Origin: an uncultured Collinsella sp.
GTDB lineage: Bacteria; Actinomycetota; Coriobacteriia; Coriobacteriales; Coriobacteriaceae
Length of the DNA stretch: 64,000 nt
NCBI GenBank assembly: GCA_902473205.1
Contig: CABRRA010000008.1
Span: 829 to 64,828 of the forward strand
Direction: 5' to 3'
Shown: positions 424 through 52,885 of the stretch, in pieces
How the letters are laid out: each line of letters begins with the position of its first letter
Numbering within the stretch: position 1 is the first letter of the stretch
Translations under genes and position numbers: made by a program
Notes under the pieces: generated by a model
The model's input: the letters and a program-made list of their open reading frames with translations, nothing else
Databases searched by the model: none
What the model was told of the DNA's origin: nothing

Positions 424-657
424 TGATAGCCTCCCATCGCGTGTGGGGCACCCATTACGCCCCACGCTATGAGTCCCATCCTAACGCTTTTGAAACGAAA
501 AACATGTGAGAACGTCAAATTAGTTAAAGCGTTTCAACATAATAACGGAGTCCTAGACCTTCCCTCCCGACAGCAGCGAAGGCTAGATTATAGGAGCAAT
601 CGCCCAAAGGATACGACCACTCAGTCTATAAATTGTTTCTGTTTTAGCAATATATGT

Positions 658-686
658 TTGACAATACGTTTATAAATGGTTACCTT
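658..686 (+). promoter_or_regulatory. Candidate sigma70-type promoter for the island operon
   Basis: TTGACA (658-663), a 17-nt spacer, then TACCTT (681-686, which keeps the T-A-n-n-n-T positions). It lies about 40 nt upstream of the radical SAM start in AT-rich DNA. This is a motif match only. Confidence 0.3.
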
Positions 687-725
687 ATAGTAAACATCTT
701 AGTTCACTAAAATAACATTAGTGAA

Positions 726-2171
726 ATGAAAGAGGCGGTAGAGATGTTAGTTCTACCCATAAAGACCCTCTTGGGCCACTACATTTATGATGCCAATCGA
801 AACGAGATACTTGCAGTAAGCAAAGATCTCTTCAATTTCATCTCAGAAGTCCAAGCAGGCGATGTTTGCCCCGACTCCTATAAATCAGACCAAGAATTCC
901 AGTTACTACAATCATGTGGCTACTGCTGTGATTCGCCATTGCAGGATGTCGCTTATCCATCAATTGACCTTTTGAAAGTTAAGCTGGAAAGAAATTTACG
1001 GATGATAACCCTTCAGCTGACTCAATCTTGCAACTTCCGATGTGATTACTGTATCTATTCCGAAAACTCCTTATACAACAGAACCCACAGTCATAACTCT
1101 ATGTCTGTTTCGACGGCCAAACATGCAATCGAATTCTTTAAGATGCACTCGATTGACAACCCAAACCCGGTCGTAGCATTTTATGGAGGAGAACCTCTCC
1201 TTCGATTTAGTGAAATTAAGCTAATTACTCAATATGCAGAACAGGTATTTGAAGGAAAACACATCTCATTTCGAATTACAACCAATTGCTCTCTTTTATC
1301 TGAAGATATGGTTAAATTCTTCTTCGATTCTGGGCATGAATTCTATTTGCTAATCAGTCTTGACGGGCCGCAGCAAATCCATGATAAGTCTAGGCATTAC
1401 GCTAATGGTGAGTCCTCATACCAAGCAGTTATAGACAATGTTCATATGATTTTAGACAACCATCCTGAACGCAACAAATATATTCATTTTAATGCCGTAG
1501 TCGACACGAACAACATCTATAAAACAGTCTCTTCCTTTATAAATGATAAGGATATCGAGGCTTGCGATGTTCAATTCAACTACTTGGAACGCAACGGACG
1601 TATCGCCCCCTACAATGACAAGTTCTCAAGTCAACTGAATTACGCCTTATTTAAAGCAAGAATTATGGACGAGCGCAAGATCGAAAAAGGAAACCGCAGC
1701 GATAGGCTCGCTTCATATACGCTTGCAAGCATCAACCAAAACATTAAGCGATTTGCACCTTCGAACATCCCAACAAAAGCTATACCCGGCGGTCCATGCG
1801 AGCCAGGAGTTACGCGTCTATTTGTGACAACAGCAGGAGCGCTTCTTCCTTGCGAAAGGGTCAGCGAAACAACCAAAGACATGTATATCGGTACATTGGA
1901 TTCAGGATTTGATTTAGGTCAAATTGAAAAGATGATCAATGTTTCAAAGCTGACCAGCGATTCATGTAAAAAATGTTGGGCATTTCAGCTGTGCACTCAA
2001 TGCATTAAAAGCGCAGATTGCAAAGGAGTAATTAGCCCTGATTACAAGCGAACAGCATGCGACAACTCAAAACGAATTGCCTTTGATCGACTTAATCAGA
2101 AAATACTTCGCTTTGAGCTTCATAGACACGAAGTGTCCATTACAACGGCTCTTAAAAGGAACAAGCGATAA
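726..2171 (+). CDS. Radical SAM / SPASM-domain peptide-modifying maturase (CcpM-like)
   Basis: 481-aa ORF. It has a CxxxCxxC cluster (LTQSCNFRCDYCIY), FYGGEPLL, and ITTNCSLL...SLDGPQQIHDKSR. The C-terminal region is a Cys-rich SPASM-type stretch (GGPCEPGVTRLFVTTAGALLPCERV...CKKCWAFQLCTQCIKSADC). ATG 744, preceded by AAGAGG, is an alternative start. Confidence 0.85.
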   Translation: MKEAVEMLVLPIKTLLGHYIYDANRNEILAVSKDLFNFISEVQAGDVCPDSYKSDQEFQLLQSCGYCCDSPLQDVAYPSIDLLKVKLERNLRMITLQLTQSCNFRCDYCIYSENSLYNRTHSHNSMSVSTAKHAIEFFKMHSIDNPNPVVAFYGGEPLLRFSEIKLITQYAEQVFEGKHISFRITTNCSLLSEDMVKFFFDSGHEFYLLISLDGPQQIHDKSRHYANGESSYQAVIDNVHMILDNHPERNKYIHFNAVVDTNNIYKTVSSFINDKDIEACDVQFNYLERNGRIAPYNDKFSSQLNYALFKARIMDERKIEKGNRSDRLASYTLASINQNIKRFAPSNIPTKAIPGGPCEPGVTRLFVTTAGALLPCERVSETTKDMYIGTLDSGFDLGQIEKMINVSKLTSDSCKKCWAFQLCTQCIKSADCKGVISPDYKRTACDNSKRIAFDRLNQKILRFELHRHEVSITTALKRNKR

Positions 2172-2176
2172 AAATC

Positions 2177-3190
2177 ATGAAGACAATTGGACTTATATCT
2201 TTCACGAGAGCTGACTATCCTCTTCTAATTGGGTTGCTAGGAATTGGCTACAATATCCGGGTATCAACGCCATGCGGCATTCTACCGGACGGCCTAGATG
2301 TTGCCAACCTTGTTAATTGCAAAGAAATTGGTATAAGAAATCAAATTAACTATGTAACGACAATCGATGAATCAGACCTGGTAGTCATTTTATCGACAAA
2401 AGAAAGCGCCGCAGGACTCATAGAATTTAGTAAACACGCTGAAACCTATGCTCATTCTGTAAATAAGAAGGTTGTCAGCCAACTCGCCACTGAACAAATC
2501 GAGTCTAGCAAAAGCGACATGCAGGATTTAGCCCTGATACCAAAAATTGTTGTCGGGAATCTATATACACCCGCCGATTCAACAATTACGTTTAGTAGCA
2601 TCGTTAGCGAGATGAGAAAGTACCATCCCAATCTATGCGCTTTGAGCTTCAATCCTTTAAATGAAATCTGGGGCTGCAACACCCTTAGTTTTGATGGTGG
2701 CCAATCCGCCATCATCAAAATGAATGAGCAGATCAATCTCATCATTGAAAATGATAAAACCGACCTGGCTCTATTAGAAACGCCCAATGTGCTTATGAAA
2801 TACGACGACCACATTTTCGGAGATTACGGATTAGGATCGATTGCTGCATGTCGAGCTTTCTGCCCTGACTTGGCCATTATCAATATCCCATACACGATAG
2901 CCGACTACGACATAATGCTTGGACTCATGCCCATAATTGAAACGCTTACGCAAGCAGAGAAAGTTCAATTTGAAATTACAAACGAAGTACTTGACGCCAC
3001 GGAAGGGTTGGAGACGCATAGATTTCAAATAAGCTATTCATCTAGCGATAAAGCTATTCAAGCAGCAAGAGAACTTCGACTAAGAGGAATGCCCTGTTTC
3101 TCAGCCAGCTTAGATCCAGAAGAATCATTACTATGCTGCAAAACAATCGAGAACGAGTTGTTTGATTTCGATATTGGGGTGCTGAAATGA
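2177..3190 (+). CDS. Hypothetical protein. By size and position it is a candidate 'peptide maturation system protein' partner of the rSAM enzyme
   Basis: 337-aa ORF starting 5 nt after the rSAM stop. Its stop overlaps the next start (ATGA at 3187-3190). Codon usage is AT-rich like its neighbours. I recognise no motif; the functional call rests on context only. Confidence 0.5.
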   Translation: MKTIGLISFTRADYPLLIGLLGIGYNIRVSTPCGILPDGLDVANLVNCKEIGIRNQINYVTTIDESDLVVILSTKESAAGLIEFSKHAETYAHSVNKKVVSQLATEQIESSKSDMQDLALIPKIVVGNLYTPADSTITFSSIVSEMRKYHPNLCALSFNPLNEIWGCNTLSFDGGQSAIIKMNEQINLIIENDKTDLALLETPNVLMKYDDHIFGDYGLGSIAACRAFCPDLAIINIPYTIADYDIMLGLMPIIETLTQAEKVQFEITNEVLDATEGLETHRFQISYSSSDKAIQAARELRLRGMPCFSASLDPEESLLCCKTIENELFDFDIGVLK

Positions 3191-3501
3191 CAGCATATTG
3201 TAAAGATGAAACCATCTATGCAGAAATCGAAAAAGCGATAAGCAATATTAGAGATTTGGATTTGACTCAATTTGACCAAAATCTAAGAAATCAGCAATTG
3301 ACCGACCCGCCATTCAACTTGTCCTCATCAGATTTAGTTCGACTGCTAATTTATCTTGAAAGCAGGTTTTCTGTTTACGTTGAGTACTCGTCGATTGAAA
3401 ACCTAGGGTTCAACAGTGTTGAGGAGGTGAAGAAGGTAATAGAACAGTCAGAAATAATCGAACAATGGGAGGTAAATCATGAGAAGTATTCGTCCATTTA
3501 A
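3187..3501 (+). CDS. Acyl-carrier-protein-related small protein
   Basis: 104-aa ORF, translationally coupled to the upstream gene. FNLSSSDLVRLLIYLESRF aligns residue-for-residue with the ACP helix-II motif (LG.DSLD.VELVM.LEEEF). That alignment places Ser47 at the phosphopantetheine-Ser position. Confidence 0.6.
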   Translation: MTAYCKDETIYAEIEKAISNIRDLDLTQFDQNLRNQQLTDPPFNLSSSDLVRLLIYLESRFSVYVEYSSIENLGFNSVEEVKKVIEQSEIIEQWEVNHEKYSSI

Positions 3502-3658
3502 CATGCATGCAGTAAATAGCGCCATTCATTTTATTAGAAATTGCCCATGCGGTTATTGCAGCTGCATGTACTGCAACATACTGCGCAATTCTCCGCACGA
3601 AGCAGAAGTCGGTTCCAATTCGATCGAGGCGATGACGCGTGGTGGCTACTGGTCCTAA
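3479..3658 (+). CDS. Cys-rich small ORF (59 aa), candidate RiPP precursor peptide
   Basis: Not in the ORF track because it is below the 60-aa cutoff. My translation is MRSIRPFNMHAVNSAIHFIRNCPCGYCSCMYCNILRNSPHEAEVGSNSIEAMTRGGYWS*. GGGAGG (3466-3471) sits 7 nt before ATG 3479. There are five Cys within 11 residues. It lies directly after the rSAM / unknown / ACP-like genes and overlaps both neighbours slightly in a different frame. ATG 3503 is an alternative start. Confidence 0.55.
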   Translation: MRSIRPFNMHAVNSAIHFIRNCPCGYCSCMYCNILRNSPHEAEVGSNSIEAMTRGGYWS

Positions 3659-4178
3659 ATCGAGCAAGACGGCTACAAACGAATATCGAATCTCAATTGA
3701 GGGTAACCCTTATCCGCATGATCTAGTTCTCATCAACCCAGCTGGAGACAACCTCAATATCAAAAGACATGGGTTCACGGGTCCACTAGGACAGCTATTG
3801 AGTCTAAAATATACCGTTTATGACGATGCAAATGAAAAACTCTTTACTGTCGTCGACGGTGGTTTTAGTAACATGCCCAGGGTTGCGCTCATCATCGAAC
3901 ACAAGGAAGTTGCGGTGTTCGATTATGGCCTAAACAGACTTGAGATGAAGTGCATAACGAACATACCGAATTACACAATAAAAGGTAACTTCCTATTTGG
4001 AGATTACGATATATTCAGCCAACGGGAAGTGAAGCTATCTTCAGTTATCGTCCTTCAATGTGATAAACGATCGTGCTTTAGCATACAGGTTTTGGATAAA
4101 GCCGAATTAGCCGCCGCAATTGGAATACCCACAGCCATTGCCCTTCTGAGGGCTCGGATTGAAGAGCATCTCGAATAA
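3639..4178 (+). CDS. LURP-one-related / YxjI-like (tubby C-terminal-like fold) protein
   Basis: 179-aa ORF. The patterns LSLKYTVYDDANEKLFTVVDG, YTIKGNFLFGDYDIF and CFSIQVLDKAELAAAIGIPTAIALL resemble B. subtilis YxjI / PF04525 as I recall them. The true start may be downstream of 3639. Confidence 0.5.
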   Translation: MVATGPKSSKTATNEYRISIEGNPYPHDLVLINPAGDNLNIKRHGFTGPLGQLLSLKYTVYDDANEKLFTVVDGGFSNMPRVALIIEHKEVAVFDYGLNRLEMKCITNIPNYTIKGNFLFGDYDIFSQREVKLSSVIVLQCDKRSCFSIQVLDKAELAAAIGIPTAIALLRARIEEHLE

Positions 4179-4212
4179 ATCGCAAAAAGCAGTTCGTAGC
4201 AACGTTCAGGAG

Positions 4213-5817
4213 CTAGATAGTTTTTTCTGGCTCCTGAAACTGTATTACATAGTCCGAAAATTGTTCGAAACCATGTCCATGATCCGCAATGATGACGATT
4301 CGCTCTTTCATCTCCTGTGCAACAACCACCTTCAAAAAGGATATCGAAGCATTATCTAAATTGTTGCAAGGCTCATCCAAAATAACAATAGAATAACTGC
4401 TCAGAAAGGCCCTACAAAGTAATAGAGAAGCCAGTTCTCCGCCAGACAAATTGTGTCCCCTAGCTCCAATGATGGGATTTGATTCAAATAATTTATCGAG
4501 GCTAAAACCCCTCAAAAGATAGATGAGTTTTTCAGAGTCAATATCTACAAGACCATAGTAAAGAGCCTTCCTGAAAGTTCCCCCCATTATCAAATGTCTT
4601 TGCGGCATAGTTGCGCAGGGTAGCTGGATTAAAGTCGAACCATCGAAAATGACAGTAGACTCATTAACACACAGTCTGCCAGCAACTGGAGACAATAATC
4701 CATTCAATACTTCCAGAAATGAAGATTTACCACATGCATTAGGGCCGCTTACTAAAACCAGACAAGGTGCCTGTATCGTGCAATCTGGAATTGTTATCCT
4801 CTCATTAGTTTCGTTCGACGAAAACGAGAGACTGATTCCTTTCCAACTAATTCGATCAGCGTGATCGAAGCATATCAAATTAGGTTTTTCAGCTTCCAAA
4901 AGACGACGTAATTCCAAGACACGGTGCAACGATCTAAACGACGGCTGAAGCTGAGCCCAACAATTCAGAACAAGAGGAAAAGGAGAATAGCATAGAAGTA
5001 CAAGTTGATAACTCTGCACTGCAATCCCGACCGTCAGCCCGCGCTTTAACACAAGGAAAATAAGCAGCAGAACTGAAAGCAAGCCAGTAATGATGTTGCC
5101 AGCGTCAACTATTTCAGTTGCCAATCTCGCAAAGACACTCTCCTCAACTCGAGAGTTCCTGCAGGCTTTAAGCATCTTTTTATAGTGAAGTAATTCCAAG
5201 TTAATTGAACGAGAAATACGAATGTAAAGTCGACAATTTATTAGTTGGGCTAAATAAGCAGAACCCCTCGCCTGGGCCTCCAATGCCTTTTCGCTCTTAG
5301 TCGATAGCTTACTAAGAGCGAACGGATATAGAAGCGAAATAAACAATGCCGAAACACAAACAGGAATCAAAAGCAACATAGAGATATTAGATAGCGCCAC
5401 AAACGATACCAAACCCGTCACTAGGCACGGAAGAAACGCAGTTGTAAATATTCCAATCATCGGCTGTAGGTTCCCGGCCTCTTCAATGCGCGATAACAGG
5501 TAGTCACTGTCTTTTGCTAAAACTAAGGGCCGCTCTAAAGCATGGCGGGCAAGCAATCTATAGAAGCAGTTAGCACCATCGGAAGCCAATTGCTCCGCAT
5601 ATTTTGATCTGAACAGATTTGTCACCAGCTCAACTGAGAGCAATACTAGCAGGCCTAACCCAATGTATAAAACGTTACGATAATTAGAACGAAGCAGGCC
5701 ATAATCTATTATCAACGATTCAGCTTTAACAACAGACAGCTCCACCAGGGCAGATAAAATGCAGAGCGCCATCAACTTGATTACTGTCGTCTTATTTTGA
5801 ATAAAAAGCTCTGGCAT
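4213..5817 (-). CDS. ABC transporter, fused permease/ATP-binding half-transporter (exporter type), with no N-terminal C39 peptidase domain
   Basis: 534-aa ORF. The N-terminal half is hydrophobic (multiple TM segments). Motifs present: Walker A GPNACGKSS, signature LSGGE, Walker B IVILDEP, H-loop IIADHG. It is convergent with the LURP-like gene. A GAGGGGA SD and a TATAAT lie upstream on the minus strand. Confidence 0.85.
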   Translation of the reverse strand: MPELFIQNKTTVIKLMALCILSALVELSVVKAESLIIDYGLLRSNYRNVLYIGLGLLVLLSVELVTNLFRSKYAEQLASDGANCFYRLLARHALERPLVLAKDSDYLLSRIEEAGNLQPMIGIFTTAFLPCLVTGLVSFVALSNISMLLLIPVCVSALFISLLYPFALSKLSTKSEKALEAQARGSAYLAQLINCRLYIRISRSINLELLHYKKMLKACRNSRVEESVFARLATEIVDAGNIITGLLSVLLLIFLVLKRGLTVGIAVQSYQLVLLCYSPFPLVLNCWAQLQPSFRSLHRVLELRRLLEAEKPNLICFDHADRISWKGISLSFSSNETNERITIPDCTIQAPCLVLVSGPNACGKSSFLEVLNGLLSPVAGRLCVNESTVIFDGSTLIQLPCATMPQRHLIMGGTFRKALYYGLVDIDSEKLIYLLRGFSLDKLFESNPIIGARGHNLSGGELASLLLCRAFLSSYSIVILDEPCNNLDNASISFLKVVVAQEMKERIVIIADHGHGFEQFSDYVIQFQEPEKTI

Positions 5818-5996
5818 ATGTCCATCCCCTCAACTAATAATTATAGCTAGAAAGATGACATTTTTATTCTATAGCCTCAAGCAGCACGCTTTGCTGACGT
5901 CAAATCTTGTCATTACAAACATGCACCTTAGCGCTTAAGACTCCAAAAATGGGGCGGCCGAGATGGCCGTCCCCTCCCCATTATCGATCTATCTGA

Positions 5997-7010: not shown

Positions 7011-9152
7011 GTGGCAAAAAAGCCTCAGCACGCTCAGAACAACCAGCGCAGTCAGCAGGGCAAACAGGGCCAGCAGCAAAAGCGCGGCGGCAAGGCGCAG
7101 GGTGGGCACACCACGCATACCCCAGCAGCGCCCACGCGCCCCTGGCGTCCGGGCCGCGATAAGTTCCTCCCCGTCAGCCGCGCCGACATGGATGCGCGCG
7201 GCTGGGACCAGTGCGACTTTGTCTACATCTGCGGCGACGCCTACGTGGACCACCCTAGCTTTGGTATGGCCATCATCAGCCGCGTCCTCGACGCGCACGG
7301 CTACAAGGTGGGCATCATCTGCCAGCCCGACTGGACCGACCCCGCCAGCATCAGCGTGCTCGGTGAGCCGCGCCTGGGCTTTCTCGTCAGCGCCGGTAAC
7401 ATGGACTCCATGGTCAACCACTATTCGGTGACCAAGCACCGCCGCCACACCGATGCCTATACCCCCGGTGGCGAGGAGGGGCGCCGTCCCAACCGAGCCG
7501 TCACGGTCTACGGCAACCTTATCCGCCAGACGTTCAAGGATGCCCCCATCATCATCGGCGGCATCGAGGCGAGCCTACGCCGTCTGGCCCACTACGACTA
7601 CTGGCAGGACAAGCTCAAGCGCTCGGTACTGCTCGACTCGGGCGCCGACATCCTCATCTACGGCATGGGCGAGCACGCGATTGTCGAGATTGCCGACGCG
7701 CTCGACGCGGGGCTGCCCGTCGATCAGATCACCTATATCAACGGCACCGTCTACCGCACGGGTTCGCTCGACGAGGTCTACGACTACGACCTGCTGCCCA
7801 GCTGGGACGATCTTACCGCCGACAAGCTCAACTACGCACGCAGCTTCAATGTGCAACAGCAGAATATGGACCCCATCACCGGACATCGCCTGGTAGAGCC
7901 CTACCCCAACAGCGTCTATGTGGTGCAGAACCCGCCATCGGCGACGCTCACCACCGATGAGATGGACGAGGTTGCCGAACTCCCCTACGCACGTGACTGG
8001 CATCCCGACTACGACGCGGCGGGCGGCGTGCCGGCCTTTGCCGAGATCAAGTTTTCCATTAGCTCCAACCGCGGCTGTTTTGGCGAGTGCTCGTTTTGCG
8101 CCCTCACCTTCCACCAGGGCCGCGTACTGCAGATGCGCAGCCACGACTCGATCATGCGCGAGGCCGAGCTGCTCACGCGCGATCCCGAGTTTAAGGGTTA
8201 CATCAACGACGTGGGCGGACCGACGGCAAACTTTAGCCGCCCGGCCTGCGACAAGCAGCTCAAGCACGGCGTGTGCAAGAACAAACGCTGCCTGTGGCCG
8301 AGCGTATGCAAGAACATGGTGGTCGACGAGAGCGGCTACACGCAGCTGTTGCGCGACCTGCGCCAGCTGCCGGGCGTCAAAAAGGTCTTCGTGCGCAGCG
8401 GCATCCGCTTTGACTACACCATGGCCGACGCCTCGGACGAGTTTTTGCGCGAGCTGCTGGAGCACCATGTCTCGGGCCAGCTGCGCGTAGCGCCCGAGCA
8501 CGTGAGCGACGCGGTGCTGTCCGTGATGGGCAAGCCGAGCCGCGCCGTCTACGATGCATTCTGCCGTAAATTTGAACGCTTGAATCGCGAGTATGGACTC
8601 AAGCAGTATGTGGTGCCGTACCTCATCTCGAGCCACCCGGGCTCAACCATGAAGGAAGCCGTGGACCTTGCCGAGGCCGTGCGCGACATGGGCTACATGC
8701 CCGAGCAAGTGCAGGACTTCTACCCCACGCCGTCCACCATGTCGACGTGCATGTACTACACCGGCGTGGACCCGCGCACCATGGAGCCGATCTATGTGGC
8801 GCGCGACCCGCACGAGAAGGCCATGCAGCGCGCGCTCATCCAATATCGCAAGCCCGAGAACTACAAGCTCGTACGCGAGGCGCTGGAAAAGGCCGGGCGT
8901 CGTGACCTGATCGGCTACACCAAGCATTGTCTGATTCGCCCCGTGCCGCCACGCCCGGGCGAGACATCTGCTGGCGGCGGACACGGCGCTGGCAAGAAAG
9001 GCGGCAAGCCGCACGGTGGCGCTGGCGGTGCCGGCAAGGGGCCAAAGGGCAGCAAGGGGCACAGCGGCATGTCGCGCGCACAGAACACTGCCGGTCGCAA
9101 TCGCGCGGCCCAGGGACGGCAGGGCGCCAACGGAGGCGGGCGTCGCAATTAG
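7011..9152 (+). CDS. ygiQ: YgiQ-family (UPF0313) radical SAM protein with a Gly/Lys-rich C-terminal tail
   Basis: The track ORF is 6825..9152. A likely GTG start at 7011 follows GGGAGG. FLPVSRADMDARGWDQCDFVYICGDAYVDHPSFGMAIISRVLDAHGYKVGIICQPDW parallels the E. coli YgiQ N-terminus. The radical SAM cluster is SNRGCFGECSFC. Confidence 0.85.
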   Translation: MAKKPQHAQNNQRSQQGKQGQQQKRGGKAQGGHTTHTPAAPTRPWRPGRDKFLPVSRADMDARGWDQCDFVYICGDAYVDHPSFGMAIISRVLDAHGYKVGIICQPDWTDPASISVLGEPRLGFLVSAGNMDSMVNHYSVTKHRRHTDAYTPGGEEGRRPNRAVTVYGNLIRQTFKDAPIIIGGIEASLRRLAHYDYWQDKLKRSVLLDSGADILIYGMGEHAIVEIADALDAGLPVDQITYINGTVYRTGSLDEVYDYDLLPSWDDLTADKLNYARSFNVQQQNMDPITGHRLVEPYPNSVYVVQNPPSATLTTDEMDEVAELPYARDWHPDYDAAGGVPAFAEIKFSISSNRGCFGECSFCALTFHQGRVLQMRSHDSIMREAELLTRDPEFKGYINDVGGPTANFSRPACDKQLKHGVCKNKRCLWPSVCKNMVVDESGYTQLLRDLRQLPGVKKVFVRSGIRFDYTMADASDEFLRELLEHHVSGQLRVAPEHVSDAVLSVMGKPSRAVYDAFCRKFERLNREYGLKQYVVPYLISSHPGSTMKEAVDLAEAVRDMGYMPEQVQDFYPTPSTMSTCMYYTGVDPRTMEPIYVARDPHEKAMQRALIQYRKPENYKLVREALEKAGRRDLIGYTKHCLIRPVPPRPGETSAGGGHGAGKKGGKPHGGAGGAGKGPKGSKGHSGMSRAQNTAGRNRAAQGRQGANGGGRRN

Positions 9153-10069
9153 TGCGGGAATGCGGTAGATGTGGTCGCAGCGCTCTGCTGGCACGCTTGG
9201 CGCAGTGAGCGCATTGCCTCAACGAGGATGACGCCGGCAATAGCGACCGTAATTGCCACGTCGAACGGCGTGTCCACAAACCAGAGCAACGTCATGAGAT
9301 ACGACCCGGCATTAAAGGCAAAATGCAGCAGGATCGTATAGCGAAGCTTTCCGGTCGTCACGAGCACCCAGCCAAAGATGAGGCCGGCGGCACCCGCGTA
9401 GCAACCTTGCACCCAATTCATGTGCATAAAACCGAAGATTGCCGCCTGCAACACAATCGCCGCGGCGATACCCCACGTGCTTGGGGCCGCCCAGGGCACC
9501 ATGGCGCCGTCCTGCGCGCTCGCACGACGCCGGCGCTTCCAAAGTGGGCGGCACTGCGGATTAAACGCTCGGAGCGAAAACTCAAAGATGATGCCGCGCA
9601 CCAGGAGCTCTTCGCAAAACGGCGCGCCGAGCACCGTGGTCAGGACGGCCAGATAGCTCGTGTCGCCCATGCCCGTCTCCTCGACAAGTTCGCTGTAATC
9701 GGCCGCCGCCTCGGGCAACAGCGACAGCACGGCGTCGGTCACGTAGCCAACGACCACCTGCATGGACAGACCGATCACGACAACGCAGACGATGCGCTTC
9801 CATGCCGCGCCTGTTCCCCCACCGAGCGGGCGCTCGCCCTGCCGGCGCGCCATGAAGGAGCGGGGCCACAGATAGCGCCACCACAGCAGCGCCATCAAAT
9901 ACGACGCCGTCTGAGCGGCAGCCTGGAACCATTGAATATCGAGATTGTCGACCGGATAGCCCGTCAGCACCGACAGGGCATCGAGAACCGAAAACAGAAC
10001 CACGCTCAGGGCTATATCGGCAGCGACAACGCCAAAACAGGCAAGTGCCCAAACCAGCGCATTGAGCAT
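9149..10069 (-). CDS. CPBP-family intramembrane glutamic endopeptidase (CAAX protease / Abi family)
   Basis: 306-aa multi-TM ORF with motifs FCEELLVRG (EExxxR), FGFMH (FxxxH) and HFAFN (HxxxN). Confidence 0.8.
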   Translation of the reverse strand: MLNALVWALACFGVVAADIALSVVLFSVLDALSVLTGYPVDNLDIQWFQAAAQTASYLMALLWWRYLWPRSFMARRQGERPLGGGTGAAWKRIVCVVVIGLSMQVVVGYVTDAVLSLLPEAAADYSELVEETGMGDTSYLAVLTTVLGAPFCEELLVRGIIFEFSLRAFNPQCRPLWKRRRRASAQDGAMVPWAAPSTWGIAAAIVLQAAIFGFMHMNWVQGCYAGAAGLIFGWVLVTTGKLRYTILLHFAFNAGSYLMTLLWFVDTPFDVAITVAIAGVILVEAMRSLRQACQQSAATTSTAFPH

Positions 10070-36682: not shown

Positions 36683-36759
36683 TGGTAGCCCGTACCAGAT
36701 TCGAACTGGTGATCTCCGCCTTGAGAGGGCGGCGTCCTAAACCGCTAGACGAACGGGCC
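36683..36759 (-). tRNA. tRNA-Glu (anticodon CTC), with encoded CCA
   Basis: The reverse complement is GGCCCGTTCGTCTAGCGGTTTAGGACGCCGCCCTCTCAAGGCGGAGATCACCAGTTCGAATCTGGTACGGGCTACCA. Anticodon stem CCGCC/GGCGG with loop CTCTCAA, T-arm CCAG-TTCGAAT-CTGG, and 7-bp acceptor pairing. Confidence 0.9.
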
Positions 36760-36776
36760 ATATGTAGCAAATGCAA

Positions 36777-36850
36777 TGGCTGGGATGGAGGGAGTCGAAC
36801 CCCCATTGACGGAACCAGAATCCGCTGTCCTGCCATTAGACGACATCCCA
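36777..36850 (-). tRNA. tRNA-Gln (anticodon CTG), with encoded CCA
   Basis: The reverse complement is TGGGATGTCGTCTAATGGCAGGACAGCGGATTCTGGTTCCGTCAATGGGGGTTCGACTCCCTCCATCCCAGCCA. Anticodon loop TTCTGGT, a GGTTCGA T-loop, and acceptor pairing TGGGATG/CATCCCA. Confidence 0.9.
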
Positions 36851-52559: not shown

Positions 52560-52885
52560 GGTAGGACTCCTTATTGGTCAGGCGCTGGTTACCGATCAGC
52601 GCATAAGGCGTCTTGGTTTCCGACCAAGACAACAAACTTGGCTATGGTACCACGGCGTCGAGCGTCCCACAAAAGGTTCACGGTCTTTGCACTGTGCATC
52701 GCGCCCAAGACACAGCAGACGACACGACGAATCGCGGCAAACGGGCGCCTTTGCCCCTTCTCCCATGTTGCAGACGTGTAACGCCGCAGCAAGGGTGCCC
52801 CTTTTGGCGCCAGACAGGTACAATGATGAACACTGTACCGTAGCGGAGCGCCCCCGCGCGCCGCAACCACGCGAAAGGGTTTCCC

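Follow-up and report, generated by a model that had tools for sequence, protein, structure and literature searches.

A conserved cysteine-rich small gene of Collinsella as the probable precursor peptide gene of a CcpM-like radical SAM cluster

Is a 59-codon open reading frame (ORF) with five closely spaced cysteine codons, overlapping the genes on both sides of it, a gene for a peptide that a nearby enzyme modifies, or a chance frame? The question is raised by a stretch of 64,000 nucleotides (nt) from an uncultured Collinsella sp. (assembly GCA_902473205.1, contig CABRRA010000008.1, positions 829 to 64,828 of the forward strand), the whole of which is called the window here. A first-pass annotation, made from the letters alone, had marked the ORF at 3479..3658 as a candidate precursor of a peptide synthesized ribosomally and modified post-translationally (RiPP). 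We find that it is a genuine conserved gene under purifying selection, with constrained Cys, Pro-His and Gly-Tyr positions, and we consider it probable that it is the precursor peptide gene of a horizontally acquired, CcpM-like radical S-adenosylmethionine (radical SAM) RiPP cluster. As judged from sequence comparisons, the peptide would most likely be the substrate of the neighbouring radical SAM enzyme. The parts of the small gene are the following.

3479..3658, plus strand: peptide gene, putative RiPP precursor, ATG start, 59 codons, encoding MRSIRPFNMHAVNSAIHFIRNCPCGYCSCMYCNILRNSPHEAEVGSNSIEAMTRGGYWS
3467..3472, plus strand: Shine-Dalgarno sequence GGGAGG, read from the sequence, 6 nt (3473..3478) before the ATG
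3479..3541, plus strand: residues 1-21, basic leader-like N-terminus, M-[RK]-x-[IVL]...[ST]-x-[IV]-x-[FMY] in the family alignment
3542..3574, plus strand: Cys block C22-P-C24-G25-Y-C27-S-C29-M-Y-C32, from the family alignment
3593..3619, plus strand: follower motif P39-H40-E-A-E-V-G-S-N47, with P39 and H40 invariant and the remainder kept in most members
3641..3649, plus strand: C-terminal motif G55-G56-Y57, with G56 invariant and the next residue Y or F

The ATG start, the encoded sequence and the C-x-C-x-x-C-x-C-x-x-C arrangement (Cys at residues 22, 24, 27, 29 and 32) were as the first-pass annotation had given them, and so were the overlaps with both neighbours in other frames, which amount to 23 nt with a 104-amino-acid (aa) gene upstream (3187..3501) and 20 nt with a 179-aa gene downstream (3639..4178). 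The GGGAGG was also present, although its spacing is one nucleotide shorter than the 7 nt reported. Across all 64 kb of the window, read in six frames, the cysteine motif is found once. An ORF of 59 codons is unremarkable by itself, since many ORFs of at least 40 aa overlap the region, among them an 85-aa antisense ORF (3410..3667, minus strand); the significance of this one lies in its conservation across species. A Pfam search of the peptide returned no match, no terminator was found 3′ of its gene, and no sigma-70-like promoter was found upstream of either the peptide gene or the radical SAM gene. The supposition that routine annotation would miss the gene did not hold, as a 59-aa gene was called on all metagenome contigs inspected. 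The identical peptide is recorded (NCBI, JGI, ENA, Logan) on 131 contigs and its two most frequent variants on 967 and 531, under no name or at best as 'hypothetical protein', and a C. paraputrificum relative is RefSeq WP_278678766.1.

The ORF was judged to be a gene because of comparative evidence from distant clusters. In a scan of a genome collection, the best 80 of 211 stretches with relatives were all Collinsella loci, leaving other genera unsampled there; individual loci are cited by L numbers. The nearest radical SAM homologues outside Collinsella are 37-44% identical to the window enzyme, and the gene order around them is radical SAM gene, a gene for a ~355-362-aa protein, an acyl carrier protein (ACP)-like gene of ~92-114 aa, and then an ORF of 57-59 aa. 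Such equivalents beside radical SAM homologues, always directly 3′ of the ACP-like gene, were found in L011/L012 (a C. paraputrificum metagenome-assembled genome, MAG), L013, L015, L099, L100/L101 and L106. Their peptides share 37-46% identity with that of the window and match 3479..3655 by tblastn with E values from 1e-10 to 7e-16. Among nine diverse members M1, C22, C24, G25, C27, C32, P39, H40 and G56 are invariant, and C29 is lost solely in the orphan copy of L098, described below. The resulting family signature is C-[PST]-C-G-x-C-x-C-x-x-C-[NS], followed by Pro-His after 5-6 residues and by Gly-Tyr/Phe near the C-terminus, and the Cys spacing is kept across the family alignment. Of 8 members, 7 have both an ATG start and a Shine-Dalgarno sequence before it.

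Differences among family members are concentrated at third codon positions (705/645/1031 by position family-wide, and 3/3/20 for L013 versus L099). For this last pair the ratio of non-synonymous to synonymous rates (dN/dS, NG86) was 0.034 in the peptide frame (Sd 21, Nd 5), compared to 0.13 for the adjacent ATP-binding cassette (ABC) transporter gene, and the shifted sense frames gave values of at least 1. Within Collinsella the frame is open in 82 loci (95.5-99.9% nucleotide identity), with 0 stops, 0 frameshifts and all five Cys invariant; near-identical island copies (at least 99.9%) are uninformative on coding status. Compared to L044, all six island genes, the peptide gene included, showed dN/dS of 0.17-0.33 at dS of ~0.06-0.14. 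Thus the earlier proposal of a candidate precursor peptide is supported by the checks that had been named with it, namely equivalents beside maturase homologues, Cys spacing, an intact frame in close relatives and translation signals; the thioether chemistry that came with it is proposed by analogy. The family is rare in protein collections, with 7 matches in a full HMMER search of the peptide against 1.84 billion representatives. A word-index search with the peptide returned near-identical Collinsella copies and deletion fusions only, and a metagenome scan with family alignment A3 returned one locus.

The peptide gene lies in an island of low GC content together with the following features.

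~430..5990, no strand: low-GC island, ~40% GC in a ~62% GC genome, from the composition profile, boundaries approximate
726..2171, plus strand: radical SAM/SPASM peptide maturase, CcpM-like, with PF04055 and PF13353; callers mostly start at ATG 744 (475 aa)
2177..3190, plus strand: TIGR04066-like peptide-maturation system protein, 337 aa; the radical SAM gene ends 5 nt upstream
3187..3501, plus strand: acyl-carrier-related protein, 104 aa, TIGR04069 best match
3639..4178, plus strand: 179-aa protein, distantly tubby-C/LOR-like, GTG start, a conserved partner directly after the peptide gene
4213..5817, minus strand: ABC exporter, fused permease and ATPase, 534 aa, PF00005, convergent

The peptide gene had been described as immediately downstream of the radical SAM gene, but two genes (2177..3190 and 3187..3501) intervene. 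The radical SAM protein contains CNFRCDYC (CX3CX2C), a G-x4-C element and a SPASM C-x2-C-x5-C-x2-C motif in its translation. Its best family match is TIGR04068, CcpM, and it is 34-37% identical to named CcpM proteins; the matches after it, RumMC (NF035951, 184 bits), lachnocin, PapB, QhpD and SCIFF, are exclusively to thioether-forming maturases, and among solved structures CteB is nearest (5wgg, E 8e-22). About 90 residues precede CX3CX2C, and general family scans, which included no dedicated test, gave no RRE/PqqD match. The 337-aa protein, with TIGR04066 as its best match, aligns end to end with the 362-aa L011 protein of the same slot (21% identity, E 3e-18), and a search with it found nothing beyond Collinsella. 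The 104-aa protein is 32% identical to its L100 counterpart (E 4e-9).

This arrangement is that of the CLI_3235/CcpM system, which Haft and Basu reportedly defined bioinformatically in 2011. Its precursor family is modelled by TIGR04065 and PF27803 (Bacteriocin_CLI3235), and its partners by TIGR04068 (radical SAM enzyme), TIGR04066 and TIGR04069 (ACP-related). In C. felsineum the canonical cluster has the same order of radical SAM, TIGR04066-type, ACP-related and small peptide genes with an ABC exporter nearby, and in general the gene order and gene lengths of the window cluster match those of canonical clusters. The slot after the C. felsineum ACP-related gene holds a 57-aa CLI_3235 peptide, MKKLGKNNKAEEANTIQAYMDDCGCTCDCGCSWSWLRSSADSAQGALIHRGFTGSAF, with a precomputed PF27803 match. 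Like the window peptide, it has a leader of ~20-22 aa, then five Cys in the centre and finally a tail of ~26 aa, so the central Cys block, which had been called unusual, is normal for the system. Nor is the overlap with the neighbouring gene unusual, as it had been taken to be, because the ACP-like gene is overlapped in L100, L102, L106 and L011 too. The general architecture of ~50-60 aa, with a basic leader of ~20 aa, a Cys block and a tail, was matched against the C. felsineum 57-aa, C. pasteurianum 49-aa and Caproicibacter peptides, and a weak hhalign match of family alignment A2 to four canonical peptides (A6) has leader and Cys block in register. Since the island encodes a CcpM-like radical SAM enzyme, a TIGR04066-like protein, an ACP-related protein, a peptide and an ABC exporter, the window cluster is, by its gene complement, a divergent branch of the CLI_3235 ('Clo7bot')/CcpM system. 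The earlier label 'Clo7bot-type' was therefore right for the system, as shown by the best match of the maturase and by the CLI_3235 peptide in the same C. felsineum slot, but was not confirmed for the peptide family, as TIGR04065 did not match.

The branch differs from the canonical system in several respects. Its Cys spacing is CxCxxCxCxxC versus CxCxCxCxC in CLI_3235, it has its own Pro-His...Gly-Tyr follower signature, and its host is actinobacterial. Canonical CcpM clusters have an S8 protease, whereas the Collinsella island has none and has the tubby/LOR-like protein as a conserved extra gene. Canonical relatives themselves vary: their Cys number ranges from 3 to 9, multiple identical copies occur, the precursor gene of C. 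pasteurianum BC1 lies upstream, and the three identical copies of C. tagluense are interleaved with ACP-related genes. Two loci of this kind deserve mention. In a bona fide ccpM cluster on the C. tagluense plasmid NZ_CP077606.1, a 67-aa Cys-rich 'hypothetical protein' is encoded three times in identical form (L104:8648-8851, 9180-9383, 9712-9915), and Caproicibacter fermentans has a Cys-rich ORF after its ACP-related gene (L097:10852-11148) that is missing from the called-gene list of that locus, the provenance of the list being unstated. Both look like unnamed precursors, and therefore TIGR04065 would miss precursors even in canonical clusters.

A described member of the canonical system is SacP23 of Paenibacillus polymyxa #23. 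According to the accessible text of its report, its cluster has a TIGR04068 radical SAM enzyme, TIGR04066, TIGR04069 and an ABC transporter, and its Cys-rich precursor of 61 aa, with a predicted 19-aa leader and 42-aa core, was expressed heterologously; that text gives leader cleavage and modification as predictions and offers no evidence for the cross-links (PMC10731318). In contrast to the window peptide, SacP23 is a bona fide CLI_3235 precursor, and its cluster has an S8 protease. CcpM has been listed as a 'previously annotated' enzyme (PMC9062424). In the searchable literature we found no report on the product chemistry of any CcpM/CLI_3235 system.

How might such a cluster work? By analogy, we infer thioether chemistry, a leader/core division and export from the family matches, from the CteB structure, and from the chemistry of RumMC (PMC8188230), PapB, QhpD and CteB. 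With an ATG and a Shine-Dalgarno signal of its own, the peptide would be translated inside a row of genes that overlap on one strand (TIGR04066-like, ACP-like, peptide, 179-aa). Its N-terminus of ~21 residues would serve as a leader bound by the CcpM-like radical SAM/SPASM enzyme, whose 5′-deoxyadenosyl-radical chemistry would join the five Cys thiols to carbons of the follower PHEAEVG[ST]N...GGY, the acceptor residues possibly lying within 3593..3619. The product would be a multiply thioether-bridged, hairpin-like peptide of sactipeptide or ranthipeptide type. The TIGR04066-like and ACP-related proteins would assist maturation and the ABC transporter would export the product, while for the producer the 179-aa tubby/LOR-like protein may be a factor of immunity or handling.

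The systems from which this chemistry is borrowed resemble the window cluster in part. The enzymes of the SCIFF/CteB (thermocellin), PapB and QhpD systems form Cys-to-carbon thioethers on Cys-rich peptides, and their models match the window maturase, with CteB as the nearest structure. Their precursors differ, however: a C-terminal block of six Cys marks SCIFF, CX3D repeats mark PapA, and QhpC, on which QhpD acts, is a subunit of an enzyme. None of these systems has the accessory genes of the window cluster. In the case of ruminococcin C (RumC), we know of no TIGR04066-type or ACP-related partner. RumC and RumMC, from the gut commensal Ruminococcus gnavus, form a sactipeptide system (PMC6779426, PMC8188230) in which Cys residues are turned into thioether bridges that define hairpins (PMC8188230). 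The likeness lies in the SPASM radical SAM maturase, RumMC being the second-best family match of the window enzyme, in the human gut origin and in the resemblance to a bacteriocin. RumC and window peptides have no detectable sequence relation, and the chemistry of RumC, four C-alpha thioethers, is proven, whereas that of the window cluster is predicted.

Several observations weigh against a precursor role in this system. TIGR04065 (cut-off 26 bits) gave no match at E<=10 for the window peptide, for P0001 and P0002, or for the L011, L013 and L015 relatives, although the HMMER filters may hide very weak matches; the C. felsineum peptide, as a positive control, scored 34 bits. The hhalign comparison of A2 with A6 was weak (probability 36.5%, E 3.7e-4, 36 columns). 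All three partner proteins fall below their family cut-offs, the radical SAM enzyme with 416 bits versus 500 for TIGR04068, the 337-aa protein with 38 versus 200 for TIGR04066, and the 104-aa protein with 34 versus 70 for TIGR04069. No S8 or C39 leader peptidase was found among the Collinsella island proteins, which leaves leader removal unexplained. The variable sites of the Collinsella peptide in its non-overlapping part, 7 synonymous versus 13 non-synonymous, are uninformative. One antisense frame of the L013/L099 pair also has a low dN/dS (0.087), which is an expected artefact. Finally, three independent types of remnant (L082-L095, L102/L103 and L098) keep the peptide with a gene of the 179-aa type and lack the radical SAM gene.

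These remnants come from a biased set, as the query of the locus search was the peptide itself. The island is kept in 66 of the 80 best Collinsella loci, and the other 14 (L082-L095) are remnants. They lack window 694..3497, which takes away the radical SAM gene, the genes for the 337-aa and ACP-like proteins and codons 1-6 of the peptide; the ABC gene is absent too, the alignment stopping at ~4238-4252. The upstream non-coding region is thereby fused to peptide codon 7 onward, the remaining peptide frames have neither a start codon nor a Shine-Dalgarno sequence of their own, and the 179-aa ORF is intact in 14 of 14. Radical changes at conserved positions (L35Q, V44D, G55D/E) are restricted to these 14 and to L080, whose contig begins inside the radical SAM gene, the other full-island loci having none. 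In metagenomes, the remnant P0003 has C32R, and further metagenomic deletion fusions are P0004, P0005 and P0132. In L102/L103 the TIGR04066-like gene is reduced to its C-terminal half, and the genes for the ACP-like protein, the peptide and a 165-aa protein are kept. L098 (MAG GCA_902495015.1) has an islet of ~900 nt, of lower GC than its 65-70% GC genome and with no radical SAM gene nearby, which contains a peptide copy (7157-7336) altered at the fourth Cys (C29F) and an uncalled, ATGA-coupled 165-aa ORF (7333-7831) weakly resembling the 179-aa family. Because loss of the start codon and Shine-Dalgarno sequence and the radical changes accompany loss of the maturase, we read the remnants as peptide decay after maturase loss, the partner gene staying behind, perhaps for orphan immunity.

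The same remnants could be read in another way, namely that the peptide is a real small protein that no maturase modifies and that works with the downstream tubby/LOR-like protein of 165-180 aa, for example as a Cys/His metal-binding partner or as a toxin-antidote or signalling pair, and that can act when the radical SAM enzyme is absent. The repeated pairing of the two genes after loss of the radical SAM gene, in three independent cases, would suit such a role, and five Cys with an invariant His could make a metal site. We nevertheless hold it to be improbable, since the remnant peptides lack start codon and Shine-Dalgarno sequence and carry the substitutions listed above, C32R in P0003 and C29F in L098 included, since the peptide gene of L011 and L013 has no LOR-like gene beside it, and since a canonical Cys number of 3 to 9 and identical gene copies are typical of RiPP substrates and not of cofactor-binding subunits. 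A further possibility is that the gene was once a functional precursor gene and that the Collinsella island is now a decaying relic making no product. The recurrent deletion of 694..3497 in 14 species-level representatives fits this, as do the three metagenomic fusions, a deletion in the 179-aa gene of L029, indels in the 337-aa gene of L033, L050 and L081, a truncated ACP-like gene (W94 to stop) in 7 loci, the lack of a leader peptidase and the lack of a recognizable sigma-70-like promoter upstream of the radical SAM gene. We give little credence to a relic, however, as most of the best Collinsella loci (66 of 80) keep the island, all six genes are under purifying constraint at the dN/dS values given above, no full island has a broken peptide frame or has lost any of the peptide's Cys, and the type strain C. 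aerofaciens ATCC 25986 carries the island.

It is scarcely credible, on the other hand, that the ORF is a chance frame in a spacer, that the 85-aa antisense ORF is the real gene, or that the 104-, 59- and 179-aa ORFs are one frameshifted pseudogene. The abundance of short ORFs in this AT-rich region, the antisense one included, the mutual overlap of three forward ORFs in three frames, and the low dN/dS of one antisense frame would be the grounds for thinking so. However, the ORF is conserved across the family with start, Shine-Dalgarno sequence and stop codons in place, and ACP-like, peptide and 179-aa-type genes are separate conserved genes elsewhere, with a spacer between the ACP-like and peptide genes in L013, L015 and L099. 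In L011, L015, L102 and L098 the antisense frame is broken by 1-4 stops, and it is because of these stop codons, not because of selection, that it was excluded. Chance ORF, antisense gene and frameshifted pseudogene were all rejected on these grounds.

A bolder variant of the precursor peptide reading, which we think rather unlikely, is that the family is a distinct radical SAM RiPP class, defined by CxCGxCxCxxC, a Pro-His pair six residues further on and Gly-Tyr at the C-terminus, with chemistry beyond a simple sactionine or ranthionine ladder and with the LOR-like neighbour as a new immunity or receptor protein. Its chemistry might, for example, draw on the invariant His, Pro or Tyr and on the partner proteins of ACP-like and TIGR04066-like type. 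If this were true, the tubby/LOR-like orphan that many Collinsella strains keep after biosynthetic loss would amount to a producer/cheater polymorphism in a common human gut commensal.

As for the precursor peptide reading in its plainer form, what is new is a divergent precursor branch in a prevalent gut bacterium, and what is known is the CcpM system type, predicted from genomes. This makes the locus a solid genome-mining lead that would not surprise a RiPP specialist. Because TIGR04065 does not detect the peptide, clusters of this branch can be read as having no structural gene; an example of such a reading is the Roseburia intestinalis cluster of this type, which was reported without one (PMC4573289). 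The host is abundant and culturable, C. aerofaciens being a human gut species, and ~1,000 and ~500 public contigs carry the most frequent peptide variants. Peptide, maturase and natural deletion variants together are directly usable to probe CcpM-type cross-links, the roles of the ACP-like and TIGR04066 proteins, and gut strain competition.

The partner genes showed further details. Alignment A9 set the window 104-aa protein and the ACP-related proteins of 10 other clusters against the E. coli ACP. By this alignment, the position of the phosphopantetheine-attachment Ser is Gly in most members and Ser in the window and C. felsineum proteins, and the near-invariant residue is an Asp two positions after it. 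Since most members have Gly at that position, the ACP-related proteins of these clusters may carry no prosthetic arm. In 7 Collinsella loci, 3468 G>A converts W94 of the ACP-like protein into a stop codon. The ACP-like and peptide genes then no longer share 23 nt, so that the final 10 residues of the ACP-like protein look dispensable.

The 179-aa Collinsella protein is detected by no curated family. Its homologues lie directly 3′ of the peptide gene in L106 (E 1e-19), L102 (E 1e-15) and L100 (E 5e-4), and an hhalign comparison of its profile with the Tubby_C_like/LOR-like proteins of L011 and L013 gave a probability of 84.5% (E 7e-6); in these two loci the LOR-like gene is upstream of the radical SAM gene, apart from the peptide gene. 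A tubby-C/LOR-like component of ~150-180 aa is encoded at L011:7450-7899, L013:7415-7876, L100:7685-8179, L102:8205-8702 and L106:9984-10496. The GTG start of the 179-aa gene is ATG in L010, and its second codon is ATG in the remnants (window 3639/3642). That the protein might be a truncated form of a 375-aa S8-like protein of L011 was rejected, because the two have no similarity; L011 does have this weakly S8-like gene. AlphaFold2 models of the 337-aa protein (mean pLDDT 31, from a 4-sequence alignment) and of the 179-aa protein (38, from a single sequence) were left unused. The exporter has no peptidase domain, as peptide-cleavage/export ABC models match it from profile position 148 or later.

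The island itself was probably acquired horizontally by Collinsella aerofaciens. It is flanked by an Fe-ADH gene (start codon ~423, minus strand) and a DUF1275 gene, the same flanks being found on Collinsella contigs, and near-identical copies of the 337-aa protein are named Collinsella aerofaciens at NCBI. With the 80 Collinsella loci that carry the peptide, these names mark the host as C. aerofaciens or a near relative. Among the six island proteins no integrase or transposase family scored above threshold, with a sub-threshold IS110-transposase match (E 0.003) for the 337-aa protein, and neither an Rfam family nor a tRNA was found inside the island. The related islands of L106 and L098, also from high-GC hosts, likewise have a lower GC content, a pattern that suggests Firmicutes-like donors as the source of the transfer. 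Elsewhere in the window, minus-strand tRNA-Glu(CTC) and tRNA-Gln(CTG) genes and an L31-Coriobacteria ribosomal-protein leader (36683..36850 and 52567..52602 for these elements), the leader scoring 35 bits, just over its gathering score, are consistent with a Coriobacteriia host.

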